A DNA stretch of 32,000 nt from an uncultured Lentisphaeria bacterium (GCA_951812855.1 OX638337.1:1650001-1682000); one strand, 5' to 3'. Positions 2,531-31,797 are shown, counted from the first letter of the stretch. Translations and numbers: made by a program. The notes: generated from the letters alone by a model not told the origin.

Positions 2531-3565
2531 ATGGTCCCATTCGGCGGCTGGAATATGCCAGTCCAATATCAAACCGGCATTATGGCTGAGCATAATTACA
2601 CACGACAGTATGTATCGATTTTTGACTGCAGTCATATGGGACAATTCAGAATTAAAGGTACCCGTGCCGGTGCAGACCTGGACAGACTTCTGCCCCGTTT
2701 GGCAGGTAACCAGCGAATCGGAAGCTGCCGATACAATTTTCTCTTGACCCCTAAAGGAACAGTTAACGATGACATAATTGTTTATCGTATTGATGATGAT
2801 GAATATTACATTGTCGTAAATGGAGCAACCATCAGTAAGGATGCCGAAATAATCAAAGAGCATTTATCTGACACGACTTCATTTGTTGATGAATCTGAAG
2901 CAACAGTAAAATTCGACATCCAGGGTCCGGAATCAGCAGAATTTCTTTGCGATTTAGGATTATCCCTGGAATCGCTTCCAAAATATTTTAAATTCTCACA
3001 CCTGCCACTCAACGGGATCAATTGTTTAGTATCCAGGACAGGTTATACCGGAGAATTAGGATTTGAATTTTATATTCCAAAGGATCATGGAGAAGAAATA
3101 TGGATGTTTTTTCTACAACACGATAGACTTCGACCCGCGGGCTTAGGTGCACGTGATACATTAAGGCTGGAGGTGGGGTATCCTTTATATAGCCGTGAAC
3201 TCGATGAAACCACAACACCTGTTGAAGCCGGATTTAGTAAAATACTGAATTTAGATCACGAATTTACGGCAAGAGAGTTTTTAACAAAAAAACCGTCAAA
3301 AAGACTTGTCGGCATTGCCTTTGACAGTCGTCGTGCAGTTCGCCACGGTGAGATTTTATTTTCAAATGATGGAACCGAAGTCGGGATTGTAACATCAGGA
3401 TCTTTCTCTCCGTCACTTAAGAGTTCTATCGCATTAGGATTCATAACTCAATGTGATATCGGCCGGGGTGGAACATTACACGTAAACTTAGGCAATAAAA
3501 GAATTAACGGAACTATCGTAGATTTACCATTTTACCAAGACGGCACGGTTCGAAATAAACTATAA
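2531..3565 (+). CDS. gcvT: Glycine cleavage system aminomethyltransferase (T protein)
   Basis: The 344-aa ORF carries MVPFGGWNMPVQY, TGYTGELGFE and LGARDTLRLE, all typical of GcvT. Homology continues upstream in frame (LKSIPLEDCHVKAGAK), but no ATG, GTG or TTG is present there. The true start may therefore be a non-canonical codon near 2459-2462. Confidence 0.93.
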   Translation: MVPFGGWNMPVQYQTGIMAEHNYTRQYVSIFDCSHMGQFRIKGTRAGADLDRLLPRLAGNQRIGSCRYNFLLTPKGTVNDDIIVYRIDDDEYYIVVNGATISKDAEIIKEHLSDTTSFVDESEATVKFDIQGPESAEFLCDLGLSLESLPKYFKFSHLPLNGINCLVSRTGYTGELGFEFYIPKDHGEEIWMFFLQHDRLRPAGLGARDTLRLEVGYPLYSRELDETTTPVEAGFSKILNLDHEFTAREFLTKKPSKRLVGIAFDSRRAVRHGEILFSNDGTEVGIVTSGSFSPSLKSSIALGFITQCDIGRGGTLHVNLGNKRINGTIVDLPFYQDGTVRNKL

Positions 3566-3939
3566 TTCATCATCGAAAAACCGTGCTGACTATTTTCAAT
3601 TTCAGGAATCTCAACATCTTCAACTTCAGATATCGTACCCAATCTATGCATAACTGCTGCCGAATGTTTTGAGGTCCCTTTTATTGTGACTTTTACATCA
3701 TTTGGATTGATTGTTTTAACCTCCCGCACCCTGGTTTCACCGAAGGACTGTCATAACCCTGCCAAACGGAACGAAATTCCGGATATATGGAAATTACTTG
3801 CTCCCAACTTCCTCATTTCAGTTAAAAAATCAACCATGCCCTGCCGTGCTTCGTCATCAGATTTGTTTTCGATTCTATCTATACCGGGACTGGAACCACT
3901 GCCCGCAGGCATTGCAGTTTGAGAAGGTTGTTGAGGCAC
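3532..3939 (-). pseudogene. Hypothetical protein split by an in-frame TGA (3748-3750)
   Basis: Track ORFs 3751-3939 and 3532-3729 lie in the same frame and are separated only by a TGA and six sense codons (...FRLAGL[TGA]QSFGETRVREVKTINPND...). A Pro/Ala/Gln-rich low-complexity N-terminal region is followed by a globular-looking C-terminus. No family was recognised. Confidence 0.4.
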
Positions 3940-4069
3940 TGCTGGTGCAGCAGCAGCCGGTGTCGATGGGTCGGGAGGAGGGGGCTGACAAGAGGCAGGT
4001 AAATTATCGTATTCGTAAATATGGGGGGATCATGAATCTGAACGCGGTTTGATCCGTGAATTTATTAAT

Positions 4070-6970: not shown

Positions 6971-7049
6971 TATTATCGATGGACAGAAATCACAATAAAT
7001 ACAACAAAAAATTATTAGCAGCACCAATACAAATCTTCAAGATTTGGGT

Positions 7050-7216
7050 GGGGGTGTAACTTTCGTTCTGTAATTTCATTTCTCCTGGTGTCGGTCTGGA
7101 GGGGGGCCCCGAGCGGTTTCAGCAGCAATCGATTGGGCCGACGGGCCGGGCACTGCGGAGGGGTTAGACTGGACAAATAGTATTGTCTGATCTAACAACC
7201 GCCAGAGGAGGTTTCC
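7050..7216 (+). repeat. GC-rich structured repeat element, copy 1; candidate MITE/PATE-like element or mobile structured RNA
   Basis: This copy aligns by eye with 30429-30587 in the same orientation. Shared blocks are GGGGGTGTAA..TTTCTGTAATTTCA, GCAGCAATCGATTG and CACTGCGGAGGGGTTAGACTGGACAA.TAGTATTGTCTGATCTAACAACCGC.AGAGGAGGTTT. It is strongly GC-rich compared with its AT-rich flanks and contains several hairpins. Confidence 0.75.
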
Positions 7217-7260
7217 TCCGGGGGAAATTTTTGAGTTGATAAAAACGCAGATCAACATAA

Positions 7261-7509
7261 CAATCATCAGTCAAAAATGGAAATAAAGGCGACCTGCATA
7301 ATGGCTTTGACCATAGCGGATTATACGGTATTTTAAGGAAAAGAGACAACTGGATTCTTTCTTACAATGAATGCGATGAGATTGACGATTTTTATGGTGA
7401 TTTTGCATTTTATTATCCTGAATGCAAGTATGGTATGTCAAACGATAAAAAATCAAGAGAAGTTTTGATTTTCAGTGATGATTTAGCAGAGAAAAACAAT
7501 CTCAAATAA
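7261..7509 (+). pseudogene. Start-less C-terminal gene fragment, 83 open codons
   Basis: The frame is open from the TAA at 7258 to the TAA at 7507-7509 (...GILRKRDNWILSYNECDEIDDFYGDFAFYYPECKYGMSNDKKSREVLIFSDDLAEKNNLK). The only ATG, GTG or TTG sits late, in ...KYGMSN. It lies just downstream of repeat copy 1. Confidence 0.3.
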
Positions 7510-7556
7510 TGGCAACACGATAAAGCTATGGCAGGCGTAGGTCAGGGGTATAGCGG

Positions 7557-8831
7557 ATGCAAGAGACAATAAAAAACAGAACGATATTTTGTAAAGACAA
7601 TCTTGATATTCTCGAAGGAATAAACACGGAGACGATTGATCTTGTTTACCTTGATCCGCCATTTAATAAAAAGAAAGTATTTACCGCTCCAATCGGTACC
7701 AGTGCTGAAGGTGCGAGCTTCAAAGATATATTTACCGAAGCGGATTTGAAGGAAGAGTGGGTACAGGAGATTCGTGAAGATTGGCCGAATGTCTACGAAC
7801 TGTTAAACGCAGTAAAAAACATTGAGGGGAGAAGTTCGTATAATTTTTGCTACCTTGCCTATATGGCTATTCGGTTAATAGAATGTCACAGAGTGCTAAA
7901 AAATACAGGCAGTGTTTATTTACATTGTGACGCTACCATGAGTCATTACTTAAAATTATTGCTTGATTGTATATTTGGGGAAAAAAATTTTAAGAATGAG
8001 ATTGTATGGTGTTATACAGGACCCAGTAATACAAAACGATATTACCCTAGAAAACACGATAGTTTGTTTTTCTATGTTAAAAATGCACAAGATAACTATA
8101 TATTTAACACCCAAGCCATAAAAATCCCATACGCTAAATTAGAGACAGGAAAAACAGGTGGTATATTTAAGCAAGCCGCAACCTTACATAAAGCGGGAAA
8201 AATACCAGAGGATTGGTGGGAAGAAAACAGAGATAATATGACCCCTGTAGGGCGTATACAAACAGAGCGCACGGGTTACCCGACACAAAAACCGCTTGCA
8301 CTGTTAGAGCGCATTATCAAGGCCAGCAGCAGCGAGGGTGATGTAGTGCTGGACCCGTTCTGCGGGTGTGCGACCACTTGCGTGGCAGCAGAGCGTTTAA
8401 GCAGACGATGGATTGGGATAGATGTATCGGTGAAGGCATACGAATTGGTGCAGGAAAGAATCAGAAATATGTACGAAATACGACAAGGAAAACTGGAAGA
8501 AGGCGAGTTATCTAAAACATATTTTTCTACCACGGCACCAACTCGTACCGATGACGGGGCAAATGCCAAGGATCAAAAATATGTTTATATTATCTCACAC
8601 CCACAATACGAAGGAGAGTATAAGGTTGGTATCGCAAGCGATGTAAAAAGCCGCCTGAGCAGTTATCAAACGAGCGATCCAAACCGAGACTACAAACTGG
8701 AATATAAACAGCTTACCGAACACTACCGGGCATTAGAGCGACATATCCACAATCAGTTTGATAGCCGACAGGAGTGGGTTCGTGCCGAGATGCAAGAGAT
8801 AATCAACGCGATGAAAAGCTATCGGCCTTGA
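7557..8831 (+). CDS. DNA methyltransferase (beta-class N6A/N4C, DPPF motif) fused to a C-terminal T5orf172/GIY-YIG-like domain
   Basis: Motif IV (DLVYLDPPFN) lies near the N-terminus and motif I (VLDPFCGCATTCVAAERL) lies later, which is the beta-class order. The C-terminal 90 aa (KYVYIISHPQYEGEYKVGIASDVKSRLSSYQTSDP...ALERHIHNQF...QEWV) match the T5orf172 pattern. No restriction endonuclease partner was recognised. Confidence 0.88.
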   Translation: MQETIKNRTIFCKDNLDILEGINTETIDLVYLDPPFNKKKVFTAPIGTSAEGASFKDIFTEADLKEEWVQEIREDWPNVYELLNAVKNIEGRSSYNFCYLAYMAIRLIECHRVLKNTGSVYLHCDATMSHYLKLLLDCIFGEKNFKNEIVWCYTGPSNTKRYYPRKHDSLFFYVKNAQDNYIFNTQAIKIPYAKLETGKTGGIFKQAATLHKAGKIPEDWWEENRDNMTPVGRIQTERTGYPTQKPLALLERIIKASSSEGDVVLDPFCGCATTCVAAERLSRRWIGIDVSVKAYELVQERIRNMYEIRQGKLEEGELSKTYFSTTAPTRTDDGANAKDQKYVYIISHPQYEGEYKVGIASDVKSRLSSYQTSDPNRDYKLEYKQLTEHYRALERHIHNQFDSRQEWVRAEMQEIINAMKSYRP

Positions 8832-8992
8832 TGAAATTAATGAAAATAAATAGCGTACACCCCTCGTAAAGGAATCGACTGCTTAAAAAATAAACAAAGA
8901 TGGAACCGTCAACGTTTGTCTCAGCAAGGATAAATTGATATTAAAAACATCACGCAGCAAACCGTGATTTATTTCAATCTCAAAGATTCTGT

Positions 8993-9387: not shown

Positions 9388-9596
9388 TTATTTTTCCAGA
9401 TTCATTGCTTCTGATCGTGTTACAAAATTCTCATAATGAATTAAGCATCATGGTTCACCATGACGCCTGGTATATTTCGAATTCGTTTCGTATTGAATGG
9501 GTCGTTATGTTCATTAATTCGGCGGATGATATCGTTTGTTTGCCCAATGAACGTCTTGCCGTCTGGATTGGCAATAATATAAAACTTGAATGACAT
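9388..9596 (-). pseudogene. GIY-YIG nuclease family (UPF0213-like) gene with one frameshift and one in-frame TGA
   Basis: MSFKFYIIANPDGKTFIGQTNDIIRRINEHN carries the GIY-YIG N-terminal motif. After a 1-nt shift at an A-run the homology continues as KYTRRHGEP[TGA]CLIHYENFVTRSEAMNLEK. The TGA at 9448-9450 falls where family members have the conserved Trp (PW.Lvy.E.F). The span is 209 nt, which is not a multiple of 3. Confidence 0.6.
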
Positions 9597-9636
9597 ACGG
9601 AAGTTGGCAGGATATTCCAAAATTCACAAAGTAACC

Positions 9637-9711
9637 TGGCTCCGGCAGTTGGATTCGAACCAACGACCAAGTGGTTAACAGCCACCTACTCTACCGCTGA
9701 GCTATGCCGGA
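9637..9711 (-). tRNA. tRNA-Asn (anticodon GTT), with CCA encoded
   Basis: The reverse complement reads UCCGGCAUAGCUCAGCGGUAGAGUAGGUGGCUGUUAACCACUUGGUCGUUGGUUCGAAUCCAACUGCCGGAGCCA. It folds as a cloverleaf with a 7-bp acceptor stem, anticodon loop CUGUUAA, a T-loop GGUUCGAAUCC and a terminal CCA. Confidence 0.93.
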
Positions 9712-11381: not shown

Positions 11382-11467
11382 AGTGACCTTTCGTTATCTA
11401 TTGCTAATATTGAGTGGATTTTTTGCAAAAATTCATTATATCAATGCCCCTGCTGAAGGCATAAATT

Positions 11468-11497
11468 AAGATAACATTTTCATGCTGCCTATGTCAA
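11468..11497 (-). promoter_or_regulatory. Candidate sigma70-type promoter for efp-epmA
   Basis: On the minus strand, TTGACA (11492-11497) is followed by an 18-nt spacer and TATCTT (11468-11473), about 87 nt upstream of the efp ATG. This is a pattern match only. Confidence 0.25.
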
Positions 11498-11892
11498 GTG
11501 TGCGGTTGACAGGCATTTGGGATTCCTTCATTACACAACACATTTTAGCTGTATTTCATATACGCTGAGTTCTTAAGAGAAGGTAATGAAGTATCCCGTA
11601 AGACTTACAACATATACCGGAAGCAGGAATCGTCATACTGGATTTTCCGTTTCGTGCAGGTCGGTATGCCAGGTGTTCTGAACGATTCTCTATATCAATT
11701 TATAGTTGCCATAGAATAACGATCAGATGATTATAGAGATCAGTTTTTTTGTGGGAAATTTAACCAGCCGCCGGAGAATTCCCCACATCCACTATATGTG
11801 TAATACTATCTCCTCAATCAAAATAAAACTCGATTAAGATTAAAAGTAAGAGTGACCTTGCCCCTTATAAAACTAGACCGTTTTGAAAGAGA

Positions 11893-12291
11893 TTATTTAT
11901 TAGAGTTATTTTTATTCGGTTGGTTTTGATTGCGAACGGATTCAATTTCATCATGGATTTGTTGCTTAATGATTGCTTGATTTTGAAACTTTTTGGTATT
12001 ATTTTTCAAGTGTTTTTTACGAACCGCTTCTTTTCTTGCCTTTTTCCTGATTTTTTCTTGAGGATCATTGTCAACTTGATCATTATTTTGTCGTTCTGTA
12101 CTTTCGAAGTATTCTAATCGGCCATTTAAGTTGTCATGCAAGGCTTTTTGCACATTATGATACTTATCAATTTTCTGCTGTAATTGAATTGGTAAATTAT
12201 CTTTACTATTGGTCTATGAATTTACTTGTAAACTTAAAAACGAAATGCTTAGATATAATGATATTATTGAGATAGAAATACCTTTTTTCAT
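11893..12291 (-). pseudogene. Small secreted Lys/Gln-rich protein with an in-frame TAG just after the signal peptide
   Basis: The ATG at 12291 gives MKKGISISIISLYLSISFLSLQVNS[TAG 12214-12216]TNSKDNLPIQLQQKIDKYHNV. This is in frame with the track ORF 11893-12153. The mature part is low-complexity and K/Q/N-rich. Confidence 0.45.
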
Positions 12292-12390
12292 TTTATTATT
12301 TTCCTTATATAGTTTAGATTGATGTAGTTTTGTTACTTTATACTAAGTAATAGTACTCAAAAATAAAAATATTTTTTCCCAATCCTTTTT

Positions 12391-12717
12391 TTAATATTCC
12401 TTTTGTTTTTCTCCACCTGTATCAAAAAATAAGTCTATATATTCCTCAGGGGGAGAATCATCATCGCGCATCAACGAGAAAATTTCTGAACCTGATTCCG
12501 GTTTATCTATGTAAGTGTGGTAACCTTGTGCCAATCCTATGTAAATGCATTCCTTCGATTCCTTGTACTGATGCGCTTCATTTTCAGCCATCTCTACAGC
12601 TTGTTTTAAATCACTAGCTTTCCAAAGTAAAATCCTTTCCTCATATAAGAATTCTTCTTTACTTTTTTCAAGTTTTGGGTGACGAAAGATACAGCGTACT
12701 GAATGCCATTTTTCCAT
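12391..12717 (-). CDS. Hypothetical protein, DUF4288-like pattern
   Basis: The 108-aa ORF has KWHSVRCIF...LYEERILLWKASDLKQAVEMAENEA...GSEIFSLMR, which resembles the DUF4288 pattern as recalled from memory. This was not verified. Confidence 0.55.
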   Translation of the reverse strand: MEKWHSVRCIFRHPKLEKSKEEFLYEERILLWKASDLKQAVEMAENEAHQYKESKECIYIGLAQGYHTYIDKPESGSEIFSLMRDDDSPPEEYIDLFFDTGGEKQKEY

Positions 12718-13384
12718 AATTTCCTCTTTGTAGATAATCGGTAAATTTAGATATATTCAAAATCAATGATATTCTTCTAACTATGTTATGAAAGTAATTT
12801 TCCAGAGTTTAGCAGTATTCTAAGACTAATTTATTTCAAAAAAATGAATACTAAACAAGATATATAAATTCTTGCATGAAGACCTACATAGGCAACTTAA
12901 AAATTTATTCATGCTTCTACTATCATCGCTTTAATTTTTGCATCTACGGGAATGATTAAACTCAAAATTACTATATGAGCACGTCAATCAAACATCTTTA
13001 TAGTTGATTACTTGTAATTGAGAAAATTGATACTCACTTCATATCCCTAATTAATTATGCAATTACAGGGGTGTCCTGTTTTTTATTTTTCTCTTCTGAA
13101 AGCATAAAAGTGAAGTGATCAGACGTGAAAGGTGAATTCTATCCGTTTTGGTTGGGCAATGTTTTTTATTCAAGCAGAAAGATCAGAAAGAACCGAATAA
13201 TCGAAAAAAATCGATTTCTCGGACAAAACAAATGTGTTTACAACTTGCAAAACCTCATATGGGCGACCCTGAGCTGCCATTAGTAATGTTTTTCCCGTTC
13301 AATCAAAAGTAATAAATCTAATACCGTATTTATTTTGTTTTGATTTTGACTTATTTTGCAAGACTCCTTTAGCCATTCTTCCAA

Positions 13385-13675
13385 TTATTCTGTTCCTAAA
13401 CCTATATCCCAAGAATCGATGTCAATAAATTTTTTCAAGGGATCATCTGGTCTAATTAATCGCGGATCAATCGAATAACACTCCCCCAGTTTCTCGAATA
13501 CTTTTTGGAAATTTGAATACTCTAATCTATAATCTTTAATCAGATCGTCATATAACGTTTTTAATGGCAGTGGTTCTCTAAATCCAAATAGTTGTTTTCT
13601 AATTTTTTGCCGATAAACTGATGTTAAAAAAAGCCAAATTAGAAATATTAGAAAAATTGTTATCAATTTAGTCAT
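13385..13675 (-). CDS. Putative immunity protein for orphan cassette 3 (N-terminal TM anchor)
   Basis: The 96-aa ORF has a hydrophobic N-terminus (MTKLITIFLIFLIWLFLTSV). Its ATG overlaps the stop of the upstream toxin-tip frame in an ATGA junction at 13671-13675, which is typical of toxin-immunity coupling. Confidence 0.55.
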   Translation of the reverse strand: MTKLITIFLIFLIWLFLTSVYRQKIRKQLFGFREPLPLKTLYDDLIKDYRLEYSNFQKVFEKLGECYSIDPRLIRPDDPLKKFIDIDSWDIGLGTE

Positions 13676-13990
13676 GGATTTGTAATAGATGACGGAAGAT
13701 TGACATATACTGCCCCTCCAATAAAAACACCTGCATTATAATAACCGATTCCCACTGTAATTGATCCAATAAATTCAGCTCCTTTTCTTATAATGGCAGT
13801 TCTTGCACCAGATACTCCTCTCAGTTAAACTTTTGTCACCCGGTTCCAAACCTAGGGCATCGTAAAGAGTTATCGGATTGTTTGTTACAAACTGATATAA
13901 ATTTATTCCACGTCCTTCACCTACCGGGTCTCTACTTAACCACCGCATGGAATCGGGATCATACCAGCGGCAGCCATAGTATATTCTCAA
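13671..13990 (-). pseudogene. Orphan RHS core-end plus C-terminal tip cassette 3, frameshifted
   Basis: RIYYGCRWYDPDSMRWLSRDPVGEGRGINLYQFVTNNPITLYDALGLEP is nearly identical at the DNA level to the core end of the main RHS gene. After a frameshift near 13825-13835 the tip continues as LRGVSGARTAIIRKGAEFIGSITVGIGYYNAGVFIGGAVYVNLPSSITNP. Confidence 0.65.
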
Positions 13991-14047
13991 AGGCGTGTCC
14001 TTTATTTACTTATTTATCTTGGCAGAATTCCTTGTGATACTGCCTGC

Positions 14048-14392
14048 TTAGTCAAGAGAAATAAGACCAAGAAACTTAAAAACAAGTACAGAAAAAATAC
14101 CTGACGCCATCCACAACAACATTCGTTTGTATGTTGACAAATAAAAATTTTGAAATTCTTCGCTCAAGAACTGTGAACGAGCTTTGGGGTCGATTATCGC
14201 CTGCCAAATATATTTAGGATCTGAAGTAGATATCAGTAATGGTATTTGAAATGAAACAATACCCCAAAAAATCAATGCAATATCACTATCCGTAGCCGTA
14301 GATATATACTTCCAACCGGATATACATAATGGTAAGAATATGACCCCGCATAGGACTGATGTAGCAGGCTGTCGAAAATCATACTTGTTCAT
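14048..14392 (-). CDS. Small integral membrane protein, about 3 TM segments (possible immunity component)
   Basis: The 114-aa ORF has three hydrophobic stretches: VLCGVIFLPLCISGW, IALIFWGIVSFQIPLLI and MLLWMASGIFSVLVFKFLGLI. Confidence 0.6.
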   Translation of the reverse strand: MNKYDFRQPATSVLCGVIFLPLCISGWKYISTATDSDIALIFWGIVSFQIPLLISTSDPKYIWQAIIDPKARSQFLSEEFQNFYLSTYKRMLLWMASGIFSVLVFKFLGLISLD

Positions 14393-14454
14393 AATAGTAG
14401 AGGGAGACCATTTTCCTAATTAAATCAGAACTTATTAAATTTCCCATTTCAGTT

Positions 14455-15102
14455 TTAGCGTTTCTCTGTCAGTTCATGTAGTGCGTTCTCAATTGATGAT
14501 TTTGCTGCAACTGTTTTTTCTTTTACTAATGCTTTAGATAGCACATCAATAATAGTTGCAGAATTTTCTGATGTGATCAAATCTAATATAAGGTTTGCGG
14601 CAGCACAACGTATTCGATAGAATTCATGATCAAGGCCTTCAAGAAAGAGTTTGAAATATTTATATTCTCCAAGTTTCGTTAAAGCATAATAAATGCGAAT
14701 TTTTTCTTCTTCTTTTGACTTAGGCAATTGTTGTTGCAGAACGTGGATTTTGTCTTTATCTCCAATATTTCCGATAGCAATAACCGCTTCAGATCGAACA
14801 AGTTCGTCTTCATCATCTAATAATTCGATAATATTATTAAGAGCGTCAAAAACCTTCCAATCTCCAAGAATTTCAAGAGCTGCAACACGCACTAATTCAT
14901 CTTGGTCAATGAGCGATCTGACAACTTGGTTTTTAACCTCCGGTAAATTGATTAAACCAAGTGCTTCAACTGCCCTGAATCTAACTTCAGAATCATCGTT
15001 ACTACAGTATTTTATTAACGTCTGAATTCGATCGATAATTTCTTCTGAAAGATTTTCAATTTCTTCAAGTTCTTTGATTTTTCCCAGGTAATTTTCTGAC
15101 AT
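14455..15102 (-). CDS. HEAT-repeat protein (PBS-lyase HEAT-like repeats)
   Basis: Units of about 31 aa recur: DDSEVRFRAVEALGLI, DQDELVRVAALEILGDW, DEDELVRSEAVIAIGNIG and HEFYRIRCAAANLIL. Confidence 0.8.
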   Translation of the reverse strand: MSENYLGKIKELEEIENLSEEIIDRIQTLIKYCSNDDSEVRFRAVEALGLINLPEVKNQVVRSLIDQDELVRVAALEILGDWKVFDALNNIIELLDDEDELVRSEAVIAIGNIGDKDKIHVLQQQLPKSKEEEKIRIYYALTKLGEYKYFKLFLEGLDHEFYRIRCAAANLILDLITSENSATIIDVLSKALVKEKTVAAKSSIENALHELTEKR

Positions 15103-15170
15103 GTTATATATCCATAGATTAGGCAGGAAAAATAAATTTTCCGAATGGTTTTAAGCAACATTATGGGACA

Positions 15171-15911
15171 TTAATTACAATTCCGCTTCGATTTATTTCT
15201 ATTTTTTCGAAATTTATCTTCTTCATCTCTCTTCTTGATTTTCTCTTCTTCAAGTCGAATGCTGTTGATGACCTTATTGATACTGTCAATTTGCTCTTGA
15301 TCTTTTTTTTGCTTAACAACAGCCTCTAACTTACTACGAATTTCCGTACGGTTCTCGTCATTGACTAACTCACGGAGATCATTTGCAGAGGATATTACAA
15401 CACGAGTATTTTCGTGGTCTAATCGGGCGACGAGCCTGCCAAAATATTCATCTTTTCCCAACCTAATGAGTGCAAAATAGATTGATCCCAGCTCCAATTC
15501 ACCTGCTTTGAGGAGACGTTCTTCCAAAAGAGTTATTGAGCTTTTAACTCCTATCTCGCCTATCGCAGTAGCAGCCCAGGATCTGCAAATCTCATTTGGT
15601 TCTTCCTCTTCGTCGATAAAATCAACAACCCAATCAAGAAAAACCACATGCTTCCATTCAGAAATGCACCTTAACGCTCCAGCACGGACATTTGCATCTT
15701 CATCATAAAGGGCCTCTTTCAAACGCTCTTCAACTTCCCATGTCCGAAGTTTCCAAAGTTGATCAATAGCACTCTCTCTGATTTTCGAATTTTCATGCTC
15801 AAGCAGTTTGATCAATCGATCTACATCGCATCCAATTCTGTGGGAAATAGTTTCTATCTCTTGCAAACAATTACGTTCTTCATCGTTGTTTTCCATAAAT
15901 CCTGTACTCAC
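15171..15911 (-). CDS. HEAT-repeat protein with a Lys/Glu-rich C-terminal tail
   Basis: HEAT-like units are present: ENSKIRESAIDQLWKL, DEDANVRAGALRCISEW, ICRSWAATAIGEIG and HENTRVVISSANDL. It is a paralog-like neighbour of 14455-15102. Confidence 0.8.
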   Translation of the reverse strand: MSTGFMENNDEERNCLQEIETISHRIGCDVDRLIKLLEHENSKIRESAIDQLWKLRTWEVEERLKEALYDEDANVRAGALRCISEWKHVVFLDWVVDFIDEEEEPNEICRSWAATAIGEIGVKSSITLLEERLLKAGELELGSIYFALIRLGKDEYFGRLVARLDHENTRVVISSANDLRELVNDENRTEIRSKLEAVVKQKKDQEQIDSINKVINSIRLEEEKIKKRDEEDKFRKNRNKSKRNCN

Positions 15912-15946
15912 TTGGATTAATTTTTTTCCAGTTAGTATAGCTAAAA

Positions 15947-16474
15947 TTAATTACATGCATTTTTCTTTTGTCGTTTTTCTTTCAATTCCTTTCTTTTTTG
16001 TTTGCCACTTTTGGGAGGCGGCTTCTGGTCGTTCATCTGTCGATTCTGTCTCTTTTTATTCGCCTTTTCTTGTGTTGTTCTTTTACCTCCACCTCCAGTT
16101 TCCCTGATATTATTTTTACCATATTGAGCCATCGCCGTTATTGTCTGATCGACGATGACTGCAGTCGCGCCGAAGCCTAATCCAATTGCTATTGCTGCTG
16201 TGCCTCCCGGAGAAAAAACTGGTACAAGGACTAGTGGATTTTCTCCAAGTGCATCAAGAAATACTATGGGATTGTTGGCGACAAACCTATGTAAATTTAT
16301 TCCACCTCCTTCACCTAATGGATCTCTTGATATCCACCGCATTGATTCTGGATCATACCAACGATAACCATAGTAAATTAAACCTGATTCAGCATCTCTG
16401 TACTTTGTGGAAAAACCGAAATTTTGAACGTAAGTTTCGGAAGTTCCGCTCAACTTTCCAAGGGGATTATACAA
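15947..16474 (-). CDS. Orphan RHS core-end plus C-terminal toxin tip cassette 2
   Basis: YNPLGKLSGTSETYVQNFGFSTKYRDAESGLIYYGYRWYDPESMRWISRDPLGEGGGINLHRFVANNPIVFLDALGENP parallels the last 80 aa of the main RHS gene. A unique 95-aa tip follows, with a Gly/Ala-rich hydrophobic segment and a polybasic tail. Confidence 0.8.
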   Translation of the reverse strand: MYNPLGKLSGTSETYVQNFGFSTKYRDAESGLIYYGYRWYDPESMRWISRDPLGEGGGINLHRFVANNPIVFLDALGENPLVLVPVFSPGGTAAIAIGLGFGATAVIVDQTITAMAQYGKNNIRETGGGGKRTTQEKANKKRQNRQMNDQKPPPKSGKQKRKELKEKRQKKNACN

Positions 16475-16560
16475 AAGTCCCCTAAAGAATGCCTACTAAC
16501 AGTTTTTAAGTCATCAAAAATTGACAATACATATCTTAACTGGTGGCAAGAAGCTATACG

Positions 16561-17121
16561 CTAATTCGGATATTTGTTCATTGTGGATAACGTTTCGATT
16601 ATTCTTTCATCCTGTGAATCAACAAAAAGACGATCAACATCAAAAATGTAAAATCTTGATTCCCCATTTATTTCTCCGTCTTGGGTAAATCTATCTACAA
16701 CGATCAGCTCATCTCGAATTTCTTGTACTTTCCCAATTATTGAATACTCATCATCTTTTGTTTTAATATTAAAAAGGCAGATCTTTTGACGTTTAAAGGC
16801 TTGCTGCACTGTGATTTTGAACAAATCGCTATCAGCCTCTAATCTTGACTGTTGAATAAATTCTTCATGCTGCTGGTTTTGGGCCTCGTATAAATATTCT
16901 ATTTTCCTTTCATATTGTGTCCCTCTAACAACATGAAACAAATCTTCTAAACATCTAACTAAATAACCATCAGCCAGACCATATTCAGAGATGTGACGCA
17001 GTAGTACATGATTATTACTGACATAGTGAATGAAACCCACAGCACAGTTATGTGGGTCATATCTATCCGTGTATATTGATACAACTTCATTCAGGTATTT
17101 TAATGTTAAAAGCGGTTCCAT
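16561..17121 (-). CDS. Putative immunity protein, with an internally duplicated domain of about 70 aa
   Basis: This 186-aa acidic protein lies downstream of toxin tip 1. The N- and C-terminal halves share a pattern: VVSIYTDRYDPHNCAVGFIHYVSNNHVLLRHISEYGLADGYLVRCLEDLFHV versus ICLFNIKTKDDEYSIIGKVQEIRDELIVVDRFTQDGEINGESRFYIFDVDRLFV. Confidence 0.6.
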   Translation of the reverse strand: MEPLLTLKYLNEVVSIYTDRYDPHNCAVGFIHYVSNNHVLLRHISEYGLADGYLVRCLEDLFHVVRGTQYERKIEYLYEAQNQQHEEFIQQSRLEADSDLFKITVQQAFKRQKICLFNIKTKDDEYSIIGKVQEIRDELIVVDRFTQDGEINGESRFYIFDVDRLFVDSQDERIIETLSTMNKYPN

Positions 17122-17422
17122 TTTTCCTTTCCCCTAAATATATTGCCTCTAAATTTTATTTATTTCAATGATTATCGGAGCATCCTGCGAAAGTATGTTC
17201 GAGATTCTGAGTCCTGAAATTGCAAATTTTCTGAAGAAGTGTAGATGTGTATAACATTGTCTCTATGCGTTTTTTATGCGGTCAGTGACGATCTGGTTTT
17301 ATGAACAAGGTCCGGCCGAAAAGAGTTTTGCAAGATGCTCATCAAAATATAGCATAAGTATAAAGAAGGCATACGATATAAAACATTGTTTTTGCTATTT
17401 ACAGCTTTTCCCTCGTTTCTTT

Positions 17423-17805
17423 TTATTTCCTTTTCTTTTGAGGCTGCCTATATTTTAATTTCTTTTTTGATCCTGTTCTAGATGAATGTGCATCCGAATG
17501 TTTATCCCAATTTGAGGGTCTTTTGTTGTTACCGTGCCCTAATTCCGCTCCATTTGGAGCATCAAAGCCCCTACCCATTCTAGAAATCATGTCAACGAAC
17601 CAAGCTGTAAAACCAGCTGAGACAAGAATTTTCCCTGCACCTCCAGCCAGAGGAACAACTAATGGGTTTTCACCTAAAGCGTCAATAAATACAAGTGGAT
17701 TGTTGGCGACAAACTGATATAAATTTATTCCACCTCCTTCACCTACCGGGTCTCTACTTAACCACCGCATTGAATCGGGATCATACCAGCGATAACCATA
17801 ATATA
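17423..17805 (-). CDS. RHS core-end motif plus C-terminal toxin tip 1, out of frame with the RHS body
   Basis: (LIYYGYRWYDPDS)MRWLSRDPVGEGGGINLYQFVANNPLVFIDALGENP is followed by a 79-aa tip: LVVPLAGGAGKILVSAGFTAWFVDM...KKKLKYRQPQKKRK. It is separated from the body by the duplicated TTAAT at 17806-17815. Confidence 0.8.
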
Positions 17806-30089: not shown

Positions 30090-30428
30090 TTGCCAAACAT
30101 AGTTGCATTAGTCCGGTTATCCAAAATAAATGACTATATTCCGTTATCAATACTATGTTTGCCGGGGAACGAAAAAAAATATGTGATTGACTGTTTAGAC
30201 TCAAACTCGATATCGTCAGTCGGCGGTTATGTTGACCAATTTGAAGAAGGGTTTTCTACATATTCAGGTTTTAAATATGCTGTTACAGTCACCAATGGGA
30301 CTGCCGCACTTCACTTAAATCTACTCGCATTGAATATTGATGAAGGCAATGAAGTTTTCGTCCCATCAGCAACGTTCACTGCTTCAGCAGATGCGATTCG
30401 ATATACTGGTGCTGATCCTGAAAATTTA
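30090..30428 (+). pseudogene. DegT/DnrJ/EryC1/StrS-family aminotransferase, 5' fragment truncated at repeat copy 2
   Basis: IPLSILCLPGNEKKYVIDCLDSNSISSVGGYVDQFEEGFSTYSGFKYAVTVTNGTAALHLNLLALNIDEGNEVFVPSATFTASADAIRYTGADP matches the N-terminal third of the DegT family. Homology stops exactly where the GC-rich element begins at 30429. The PLP-lysine region is absent. Confidence 0.75.
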
Positions 30429-30587
30429 GGGGGTGTAAGTTTCTTTCTGTAATTTCACTTCTCGTGGTGTCGCCCCGAAGGGAGACCCGAGTGGTTGCGG
30501 CAGCAATCGATTGTGCCGCCACTGCGGAGGGGTTAGACTGGACAAGTAGTATTTGTCTGATCTAACAACCGCAAGAGGAGGTTTTCC
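30429..30587 (+). repeat. GC-rich structured repeat element, copy 2
   Basis: This is the direct-orientation homolog of 7050-7216. It contains a perfect GCGGCA/TGCCGC stem around a loop carrying the palindrome AATCGATT. It also carries the conserved 3' hairpin GGTTAGA-CTG-GACAA/TTGTC-TGA-TCTAAC. Confidence 0.75.
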
Positions 30588-30698
30588 GGTAATGCAACTT
30601 TTCTTCTGCCCGCTCTGATTCTAATGTCTGCATCGTGTTTTCCTTTCTCTTTATTTACTGATTGACTAAAACCCCTGCCAACTTGCCCTTCAAAATAT

Positions 30699-31009
30699 TT
30701 GATTTTATCATTATCGTGTTTAATAAATCGGTCTGATGCTGGATATACCGATGCGGTTATTGAAGCAGAACAATCTTATCAACTTGGTCAGTATAACAAC
30801 ACTCCGGTGCAATTGTTTGAATTGCTGCAAAAGTGAAAGCATTGTCATTGCAGGAAAAAGCAGATGTACTATACAGACGGGCATTATGTCTTGAAGGCCT
30901 TGCTCAGCAGAGAGAAGCAATGGGCATTTATAAGTTTATTATATCTGCTTATCCAACGACTGAGTCTGCCTATTGTTCAAAAACACGATTGGAAATTCTG
31001 AGTAGCTAG
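30699..31009 (+). pseudogene. Small TPR (YbgF/CpoB-like) protein, frameshifted at an A-run
   Basis: The first frame reads ...DAGYTDAVIEAEQSYQLGQYNNTPVQLFELLQK and ends at TGA 30834-30836. The -1 frame continues as VKALSLQEKADVLYRRALCLEGLAQQREAMGIYKFIISAYPTTESAYCSKTRLEILSS and ends at TAG 31007-31009. Both parts show a TPR-like helical pattern. Confidence 0.45.
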
Positions 31010-31797
31010 TTTGTTTTTTTTCTGGCTAAACCACATCTGCTTTTTGAGATAAAATCAATGATCTCTGAAATTTCAGGGCTGTCAGGAAATATATCCTGGA
31101 TTTCTGTTGTTGCTTCTTCCAGGGTTAAGGTGGAACGAATAATTTTCTTGAATGCATCTGAAACTATTTTTATGGTTTCTTTCGATTTTCCATTTCGCTC
31201 CATACCAATTTTGTTAATCACTCTCATCTCTGCAGGTATTCCATCAGCAATAGTAAACGGCAGCACATCATGGGTTAACTTGGAATATCCTCCAATCATT
31301 GCCATTTTGCCGATTTTGACAAACTGTACAACCCCGGTATAGCCACCGATAATTGCATTATCGTCTACTTCAGTATGACCGGAAAGCATTGCACCGCTGC
31401 TCATAATTATATTATTCCCCAATCGGCATTCATGAGCAATATGACAGTAGGATTGAATGAAACAGTCATCGCCTATTAGAGTAATATTGCCTGTTCCTGT
31501 GGATGAATTGACCGTAACATATTCACGAATAATATTGTTATTACCAATTTTTACATAGGCAGTTTCACCCTTAAACTTCAAATCCTGTGTTTGTTTTCCA
31601 AGACAGCAGAATGAATACAGTTCACAAGCATTACCCAGAGTTAAATGTCCGTCTAAGACGACGTGACTTTGAAGTTTACAATTGTCTCCAATGCGAACGT
31701 GTTCTCCGATAATGCAATAAGGGCCAATTGTACAGTTGTCTCCAATTATGGCACCTTCAGAAATAATGGCTGTTTTATGAATGGATGCTGTACTCAT
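31006..31797 (-). CDS. lpxA: Acyl-ACP--UDP-N-acetylglucosamine O-acyltransferase
   Basis: The 263-aa ORF has hexapeptide repeats throughout (IHKTAIISEGAIIGDNCTIGPYCIIGEHVRIGDNCKL...). The C-terminal helical domain is present, and the gene sits in the fabZ-lpxA order. Confidence 0.93.
   Translation of the reverse strand: MSTASIHKTAIISEGAIIGDNCTIGPYCIIGEHVRIGDNCKLQSHVVLDGHLTLGNACELYSFCCLGKQTQDLKFKGETAYVKIGNNNIIREYVTVNSSTGTGNITLIGDDCFIQSYCHIAHECRLGNNIIMSSGAMLSGHTEVDDNAIIGGYTGVVQFVKIGKMAMIGGYSKLTHDVLPFTIADGIPAEMRVINKIGMERNGKSKETIKIVSDAFKKIIRSTLTLEEATTEIQDIFPDSPEISEIIDFISKSRCGLARKKTN

Follow-up and report, generated by a model that had tools for sequence, protein, structure and literature searches.

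The two copies of a GC-rich repeat found in a 32,000-nt stretch of DNA from an uncultured Lentisphaeria bacterium (GCA_951812855.1 OX638337.1:1650001-1682000, referred to here as the window) are, with a probability that we put at about 0.9, inactive remains of the left end of a single insertion sequence (IS) that belongs to the IS406-like subgroup of the IS256 family. The repeat is the transposase-binding end and the leader of a DDE-type IS that moves by copy-out/paste-in, and the element is an unnamed IS406-like member of the IS256 family, seen in the window as two decayed ends. Both copies are homologous to a full-length element that is linked to a transposase gene, both have a terminal inverted repeat (TIR) core in common with other IS406-like elements, both are truncated, and one of them lies where a gene has been disrupted. 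The IS256 family consists of elements with DDE Mutator-like transposases, which transpose by copy-out/paste-in through a circular intermediate. The link of the window repeat to this family is drawn from sequence comparison, namely from one full-length relative in another organism and from the similarity of the TIRs.

The repeat and its two copies

Comparison of the two copies by MAFFT and blastn confirmed the direct repeat that a first-pass annotation of the window had reported, with 82.7% identity over 173 nt between 7050-7221 and 30429-30589 (blastn E 5.7e-45). The 3-4 kb flanking both copies gave no further alignment by word-7 blastn or tblastx. As had been described, GGGGGTGTAA opens both copies; at copy 1, an extra GGGT stands between GGGGG and the ATTT(G/A) context said to precede it. 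The GCAG...CTGC blocks, the palindrome AATCGATT and the 3' hairpin GGTTAGA-CTG-GACAA/TTGTC-TGA-TCTAAC had been correctly recognised as conserved in both copies, and the proposed lack of coding capacity also holds, there being no reading frame common to the two. The window has 37% GC, and no other non-coding part of it is as rich in GC as the two copies, which reach 53% as a whole; the hairpin block of copy 1 has 61%. The general description of the repeat as strongly structured, non-coding debris of a mobile element was therefore right.

The differences between the copies called for more revision. A 9-nt segment, GACGGGCCG, had been regarded as an insert in copy 1. It is also present in the full-length relative (contig L101, described below), which serves as an outgroup, so that the 9 nt are ancestral and were lost from copy 2 by deletion. 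What had been described as the replacement of one hairpin by another is a hypervariable stretch with 6 substitutions in 14 nt, and in copy 1 and L101 this stretch pairs with the 9-nt segment, the pairing including a U:G to C:G change. The partner of the lost segment was orphaned in copy 2 and has drifted into a small local hairpin.

Substitutions between the copies are unevenly spread, with 15 in the 91 positions compared in 7050-7150 and 2 in the 64 of 7151-7214 (Fisher p 0.009), and both differences in the 3' part sit in the apical loop of the 3' hairpin. Neutral decay of dead relics does not explain the better conservation of these 64 nt, which may be due to gene conversion or to residual function.

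Both copies are carried by both strains of the sample. The window stems from ENA metagenome assembly ERZ18545485; three haplotigs match it at 100% identity and the 1.94-Mb contig ptg000035c at 99.5%. On the extended contig, with about 8 kb more on the left and about 10 kb more on the right, there was no third copy in some 50 kb. Between the strains, which diverge by 0.5% overall, copy 1 differs at four positions, three of them clustered in a G/C run at 7100-7110 that reads GGGGGGCCCC in the window and GGGGGGGGGCC at the homologous loci of ptg000035c (L001/L100). Either a hypervariable homopolymer tract or errors in the long-read consensus could account for these differences.

A full-length relative with a transposase gene

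A spurious 63-codon ORF on the minus strand across copy 1 served as query for a full HMMER search against 1.84 billion representative proteins. The match was one protein of 90 aa (P0135), with 60% identity over 44 residues, which runs on into a second frame of the repeat as copy 2 does. It is encoded on contig ERR11809032_765285 of Logan assembly ERR11809032 (L101). Positions 1752-1545 of this contig (minus strand) align with 7049-7254 of the window at 77% identity over 209 nt (E 1.2e-39) and with 30429-30518 at 80%. On L101 the repeat lies directly 5' of a frameshifted transposase gene of the IS256 family, the ORFs of which start about 255 nt from the outer end of the element. Both pieces of the transposase match PF00872 (Transposase_mut), with a match to NF033543 ('IS256 family transposase') at E 1.1e-37, and the reconstructed protein of 405 aa is 50-54% identical to annotated IS256/IS406-like transposases of plasmids.

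From end to end the L101 element measures about 1463 bp (290-1752), and its TIR arms, at 298-316 and 1725-1743, can be extended to about 27 bp. The window repeat starts, with its first base (GGGGG...), at the outermost position of the left inverted repeat (IRL), which is represented by the first 27 nt of the repeat (GGGGGTGTAAnTTTCnTTCTGTAATTT). The first-pass annotation had stated that terminal inverted repeats are absent, and this is true of the fragment taken alone; its first 27 nt are nevertheless one TIR arm, and of the missing partner arm only a 21-nt tip at 30588-30608 is left. Thus the repeat matches an IS end of a different organisation from any that had been proposed, the left inverted repeat and leader of an IS256-family DDE transposon as it is found in L101. 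A check for a full-length parent with tnpA, tnpB or iscB had been suggested; the full-length relative L101 has a DDE transposase of the IS256 family instead. A search of the window by tblastn revealed no transposase remnant. Without a transposase and a usable right end, the window copies must be immobile.

The IS on L101, the only full-length relative, is decayed too: three or more frameshifts or stops interrupt its transposase gene and make it a pseudogene, and the element lies next to porin genes in flanks of 43% GC versus 37% here. The L101 host thus differs in base composition, and this IS lineage has passed from one organism to another and is in decay in both places. Inspection of the flanks at 290 and 1752 of L101 found no matching 8-9 bp that could represent a target-site duplication, nor is such a duplication visible around copy 1 or copy 2, neither of which has a right end. 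Since decay or rearrangement can erase a target-site duplication, its absence weakens, and does not exclude, membership of the IS256 family.

Comparison with IS256 and IS406-like elements

We extended the comparison to annotated or unannotated IS406-like elements from Hydrogenophilus (pTH1; L102), Isosphaeraceae (pEP7_01; L103), Burkholderia (IS406 of the Burkholderia multivorans plasmid NZ_CP090750.1; L104) and Halioglobus (pRR3-57; L105). All four have the IRL core TTCTTTCTGTAA(A/T)TT of window positions 7062-7076, with GTGTA before the core, so that they and the window repeat have in common a terminal core of the form ..GTGTA.C.T.C.TTCTGTAA(A/T)TT. A subterminal TGTAAT motif lies at 7069-7074 in copy 1 and at 30448-30453 in copy 2, and the equivalent position in the four relatives is occupied by TGTAAA or TGTAAT; a subterminal TGTAAA motif is a feature of IS256-family repeats (PMC7780238).

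Linkage to a DDE Mutator-like transposase is seen in the full-length homologue L101 only. Imperfect TIRs of about 24-41 bp, as the family has them, are present as two arms in L101 and as the IRL arm in the window copies; L101 also has the usual size of about 1.3-1.5 kb and a single transposase ORF, here frameshifted, and the TGTAAA-type motif is present while the 8-9 bp target-site duplication is missing. Like the present element, ISCth4 and IS256 itself are 1.3-1.5 kb long, encode one DDE Mutator-like transposase, prefer AT-rich targets and end in imperfect TIRs (about 26-31 bp) with a subterminal TGTAAA-type motif (PMC7780238). The AT-rich target preference, which has been reported for the IS256-family member ISCth4 (PMC7780238), fits the AAATTT-like flanks of the window copies. 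The present element differs from ISCth4 and IS256 in that its transposase is no more than a distant relative of theirs, in the lack of visible 8-bp target-site duplications, and in junction promoter halves that can only be guessed at (TTGCAT in the right inverted repeat, IRR, and TGTAAC in the IRL).

The resemblance to IS406-like elements extends into the leader. In these relatives, too, GC-rich hairpins occupy the interval from the IRL to the ribosome-binding site and, as in the window lineage, an IS406-like leader of this kind is combined with an IRL that is complementary to the Shine-Dalgarno region. Part of the GC-rich block of the window repeat (GATTG...GGGCCGACGG) recurs in the leader of the Isosphaeraceae element. 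When run over 0.3 Mb of related loci, a covariance model of the repeat (R1) recovered only itself, L101 (121 bits) and, weakly, IS406 (17 bits, E 6e-4). The leaders differ in length, at about 255 nt in L101 and about 100-150 nt in the IS406-like relatives, and that of L101 includes about 90 nt of additional AT-rich sequence with a promoter-like site and a new Shine-Dalgarno sequence. Unlike the IS406-like elements, the window copies are without transposase and right end.

Anatomy of the two remnants

The features of the two remnants and of the genes at copy 2 are collected in Table 1.

Table 1. Coordinates of the IS remnants and of the gene fragments bordering copy 2, in window positions
Feature	Position	Strand	Evidence
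Copy 1, IRL, GGGGGTGTAACTTTCGTTCTGTAATTT	7050..7076	+	Aligns with the IRL of L101 and of L102-L105
Copy 1, GC-rich structured leader	7077..7232	+	77% identical to L101 1752-1545; covariance-model match
Copy 1, promoter-like site TTGATA-17-AACAAT	7236..7264	+	Homologous TTGATA-18-AATTAT at L101 1563-1534
DegT/DnrJ/EryC1 aminotransferase, N-terminal fragment, ~110 aa	30090..30419	+	Pfam PF01041
Copy 2, IRL, GGGGGTGTAAGTTTCTTTCTGTAATTT	30429..30455	+	Alignment with copy 1 and L101
Copy 2, leader with 9-nt deletion relative to copy 1 and L101	30456..30587	+	Ends after GAGGAGGTTTTCC, where homology stops
Right-TIR tip, 21 nt, minus-strand reading CAGAAGAAAAGTTGCATTACC	30588..30608	-	20 of 21 positions match the IRR tip of L101
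TPR-like gene, frameshifted C-terminal remnant	30720..31020	+	Six-frame reading; weak TPR_6 match, E 1.3e-4, below the Pfam cut-off

Homology of copy 1 to the IS runs from 7050 to about 7254 (some 205 bp), and unrelated DNA follows beyond about 7254-7270. Within the leader there is a long 3' hairpin at 7161-7196 and a Shine-Dalgarno-like AGAGGAGG at 7204-7211, which aligns with the Shine-Dalgarno sequence of IS406-like elements. The leader closes with the hairpin GGAGG-TTT-CCTCC followed by GGGGGAAATTTTT; the L101 counterpart of this hairpin and T-run was called terminator-like. The promoter-like site is inside the IS relic, 3' of the structured block and 5' of where the transposase would be expected to start. 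Copy 1 has a TetR gene and a methyltransferase-T5orf172 gene as neighbours and is located at the far edge of a variable islet by a tRNA-Asn gene. Its promoter-like site faces a 71-aa ORF (about 7294-7509), called as a gene on the homologous loci of ptg000035c (L001/L100) and without a Pfam match to its product, and then the N6/N4 methyltransferase-T5orf172 gene (7557-8831). It is possible that the IS relic was co-opted as a promoter for this ORF and the methyltransferase.

Copy 2 keeps 159 bp of the IS. The right-TIR tip that adjoins it reached an alignment score of 37, compared with a shuffle maximum of 28; it occurs nowhere else in the window, where none is expected by chance. The tip is inverted and its outer end touches the broken leader of copy 2. 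Past these 21 nt no homology to the right end of the IS could be detected in 30609-30770. To the left of copy 2, the homology of the DegT fragment to its relatives ends past the conserved GA-x-P and just before the IRL, and the rest of DegT was not found on the right, where about 130 nt of unassignable sequence lead to the TPR-like remnant. With DegT cut off on its left and the TPR remnant on its right, copy 2 is located at a deletion junction of two truncated plus-strand genes.

The left junctions of both copies lie within short palindromes, CAAATCTTCAAGATTTG (7029-7045) at copy 1 and CCTGAAAATTTAGG (30417-30430) at copy 2, and between the end of the DegT homology and the IRL of copy 2 there are 9 nt (GAAAATTTA) that are unaccounted for. 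Both the palindromic junctions and the 9 nt may reflect an AT-rich target preference or filler DNA.

Each remnant consists of the 27-bp left TIR, at which the transposase binds and cleaves, followed by the GC-rich leader that in an intact element extends to the start of the transposase; this genome has lost the transposase gene together with the right end. What interrupted copy 2 could have been the end of another IS copy, or its own right end in an intramolecular attack. An inverted IRR tip placed against a broken leader is the arrangement expected from an insertion into the leader followed by near-total deletion of the insert. A later deletion would then have removed everything past the insertion, together with most of DegT and of the TPR gene. 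We infer the order of these insertion and deletion events.

Structure and possible role of the leader

Folding from the two window sequences alone yields essentially no covariation. In the leader helices G:C has changed to G:U on one side in several places, and the 3' hairpin contains two compensatory pairs, which are the extent of the covariation in the leader; several pairs are broken in L101. Changes to G:U, one-sided changes and the compensatory pairs fit the transposase-sense strand, to which the leader hairpins probably belong. A helix between the IRL and AGGAGG is part of the consensus fold of the window copies, and in the minimum free energy folds of IS406 and of the Hydrogenophilus element the IRL pairs with the Shine-Dalgarno region.

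Fold-back inhibition in IS10 and IS50 protects translation of the transposase from external transcripts. The likeness to those elements lies in a sequence close to the end that is complementary to the ribosome-binding site of the transposase and is sequestered in read-in transcripts; here CTTTC..TCTG of the IRL would pair with the ancestral ribosome-binding site CAGAGGAGG in the same manner. In addition, a hairpin and T-run directly before the element's own promoter-like site would stop transcripts reading in. Taken together, this pairing and the hairpin and T-run ahead of the promoter-like site lead to a model in which the leader is an insulator, and the most likely role for it in the intact IS, tentative as this must be, would be to shield transposase expression from outside transcripts. 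The difference from IS10 and IS50 is that the paired AGGAGG of this lineage is no longer beside the start codon. It is about 90 nt away, and the fold-back model may therefore apply only to the ancestral design. To our knowledge, fold-back inhibition has not been demonstrated for any member of the IS256 family.

A stronger version of this model would have the leader, in this lineage and in its IS406-like relatives, be a conserved cis-regulatory RNA module that combines fold-back with an insulating terminator, and would have its 3' domain still under selection in the dead copies. We consider this rather unlikely. One possible reason for such retained selection would be that copy 1 supplies a promoter and leader to the 71-aa ORF and the methyltransferase gene.

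Alternative explanations

The arrangement at copy 1 could also be read as the left end of a non-autonomous, TIR-bounded unit of about 1.8 kb (7050-8864), a mobile insertion cassette or transporter IS in which the transposase gene was replaced by the 71-aa ORF and the methyltransferase-T5orf172 gene and which was mobilised in trans by an IS256-family transposase. Directly past the stop codon of the methyltransferase gene, 8831-8864 reads ATGAAATTA...TACACCCC (ATGAAATTAATGAAAATAAATAGCGTACACCCCT), which matches the reverse complement of two blocks of the IRL, the inner one (TAATTTCAT) and the outer one (GGGGTGTA). The promoter-like site derived from the IS (7236-7264) points towards the genes of this putative unit, and the segment lies in the variable islet by tRNA-Asn, which is different in the relative OFTM167 (described below). 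However, the candidate right repeat has a Smith-Waterman score of 22 when the best chance matches of shuffled windows average 23.8, and it can be aligned only with a 4-nt indel that lengthens its middle; neither a target-site duplication nor a second example of such a unit is known. A cargo element of this kind therefore appears unlikely, and copy 1 is better regarded as a truncated IS end. An independent RNA, either a lineage-specific structured sRNA gene or a mobile structured RNA that was captured by chance in the leader of the L101 IS, would account for the unusual conservation of the 3' hairpin domain between the window copies, for GC-rich sequence in a genome of 37% GC, for the two compensatory pairs and for minus-strand fold z-scores of -2.4 and -3.7 in the two copies (plus strand, -1.1 and -1.9). 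This is highly improbable, because the repeat begins exactly at an IS terminal repeat that is common to IS406-like elements of other phyla, and because parts of its GC-rich block occur in the Isosphaeraceae leader. The two copies have in common no promoter or terminator inside the repeat, and there was no match in Rfam, with the HEARO and IS605-orfB models included, at the gathering score or at E<=10 for either strand of either copy. Nor were there further copies in GTDB genomes, JGI metagenomes, viral contigs, plasmids or phages: a strict pattern of the 3' hairpin had 0 matches in GTDB genomes, four exact patterns had 0 in viral contigs, and blastn against plasmids and phages found no relative. 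An 18-mer gave nine matches in JGI metagenomes, none of them a homologous copy; eight consist of the bare 18-mer, and the ninth (L006), which extends over 34 nt, falls within a coding region and is probably fortuitous. When all six frames of both copies were translated and concatenated, a search of a word-indexed protein database gave no match.

The first-pass annotation had put forward three identities, a PATE or MITE derived from an IS200/IS605 element, a relic of a guide or omega-RNA, and a family of mobile structured RNAs; all three were wrong, since L101 carries a transposase of IS256 type. A PATE or MITE of IS200/IS605 origin, or an orphan omega-RNA scaffold of TnpB or IscB, is suggested by the strong imperfect hairpin near one end, by a fragment without TIR or target-site duplication and by the AT-rich, ATTT-like left flank of both copies, and PATEs resemble the repeat in being short, non-coding, hairpin-rich IS derivatives that are found as orphans (PMC10055086). 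PATEs differ, though, in having subterminal hairpins at both ends, TAM/TEM cleavage motifs and HUH TnpA chemistry (PMC10055086), none of which was found here. The first 45 nt of the repeat form no DNA hairpin, the strong hairpin being confined to the 3' side (7161-7196), and by inspection neither TAM/TEM motifs nor complementarity of a guide to a cleavage site could be recognised. As L101 encodes a DDE transposase of the IS256 family with TIRs, and not TnpA or TnpB, the probability of an origin from such elements is negligible.

Several other candidates were considered and rejected. A bridge or seek RNA of the IS110/IS1111 type would be expected next to a DEDD recombinase, and the neighbour in L101 is a DDE IS256 transposase; two large guide loops would be expected as well, and the sole internal loop here measures 1x1 to 3x3. 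A sponge of the CsrB/RsmY type was discounted because each copy has four GGA by eye, compared with about 3.5 estimated by hand from composition, and the position of these motifs in loops is not consistent. An att site of a tRNA-Asn island was rejected since the core genes flanked by the copies are syntenic in OFTM167. Resemblances to attC, dif and oriT-nic, judged by eye, are in the wrong orientation or confined to copy 1. A small outward ORF on the minus strand (MKLQNESYTP in one copy, VKLQKETYTP in the other) was rejected since all three differences are non-synonymous and its Shine-Dalgarno sequence is lost in copy 2.

Genomic surroundings

The nearest genome in GTDB is that of the PVC-group MAG 'Verrucomicrobia bacterium OFTM167', with 87% identity in LpxA and 69% in EpmA, and the next relatives are Lentisphaerales at 50-64%. 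Nearest relatives as distant as these indicate that the lineage is very thinly sampled. We examined OFTM167 for an empty site or a syntenic copy and found no element at these loci. Synteny with OFTM167 is broken at both copies, the breaks lying right after LpxA and after tRNA-Asn. The genes that follow the same tRNA-Asn in OFTM167 encode DUF2442 and ParB-like HTH proteins, and this difference identifies the flank of tRNA-Asn as a variable islet. In the window, an ORF for a truncated GIY-YIG nuclease (51 aa; E 4e-7 in Pfam) occupies 9440-9600 of the minus strand, just downstream of the 3' end of tRNA-Asn (9637-9711, minus strand).

The block from 11400 to 23700 contains small ORFs and genes for HEAT-repeat proteins, a C39 peptidase and an RHS/YD-repeat protein of 1451 aa. 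It separates EF-P from a cluster of LPS-kinase and glycosyltransferase genes that is adjacent to it in OFTM167. The length of the RHS protein differs between the strains (1451 and 1468 aa), and the region has undergone rearrangement between them. A 153-nt sequence is present here three times (13836-13988, 16230-16382 and 17658-17810), which is consistent with orphan RHS toxin-tip cassettes.

Two further features lie near the start of the window. The sequence ATAACGGATTACTCATTCT occurs twice, 50 nt apart, at 2383-2463, just 5' of the gene for the T protein of the glycine-cleavage system (2531-3565). Rfam detected no glycine riboswitch at 2383-2463, and the pair may represent an operator or promoter that was duplicated. 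A third spot rich in GC (up to 64%) occupies 3566-4069 and is unrelated to the repeat. Its minus strand carries a gene with a Pro/Ala-rich linker that is split into ORFs of 62 and 65 aa and is probably a frameshifted pseudogene.

Significance

Identification of the repeat removes a candidate for a new mobile structured RNA and replaces it with debris of an IS256-family element, a change that has little import beyond annotation. It also marks two sites at which IS activity truncated genes, DegT among them, and which coincide with breaks in synteny. The debris is found in a small (1.94 Mb) and sparsely sampled genome of the PVC group and is typical of the erosion of host-associated genomes. For the family as a whole, a structured leader, with pairing between the terminal repeat and the ribosome-binding site, seems to be common to IS406-like elements and could represent a regulatory device.
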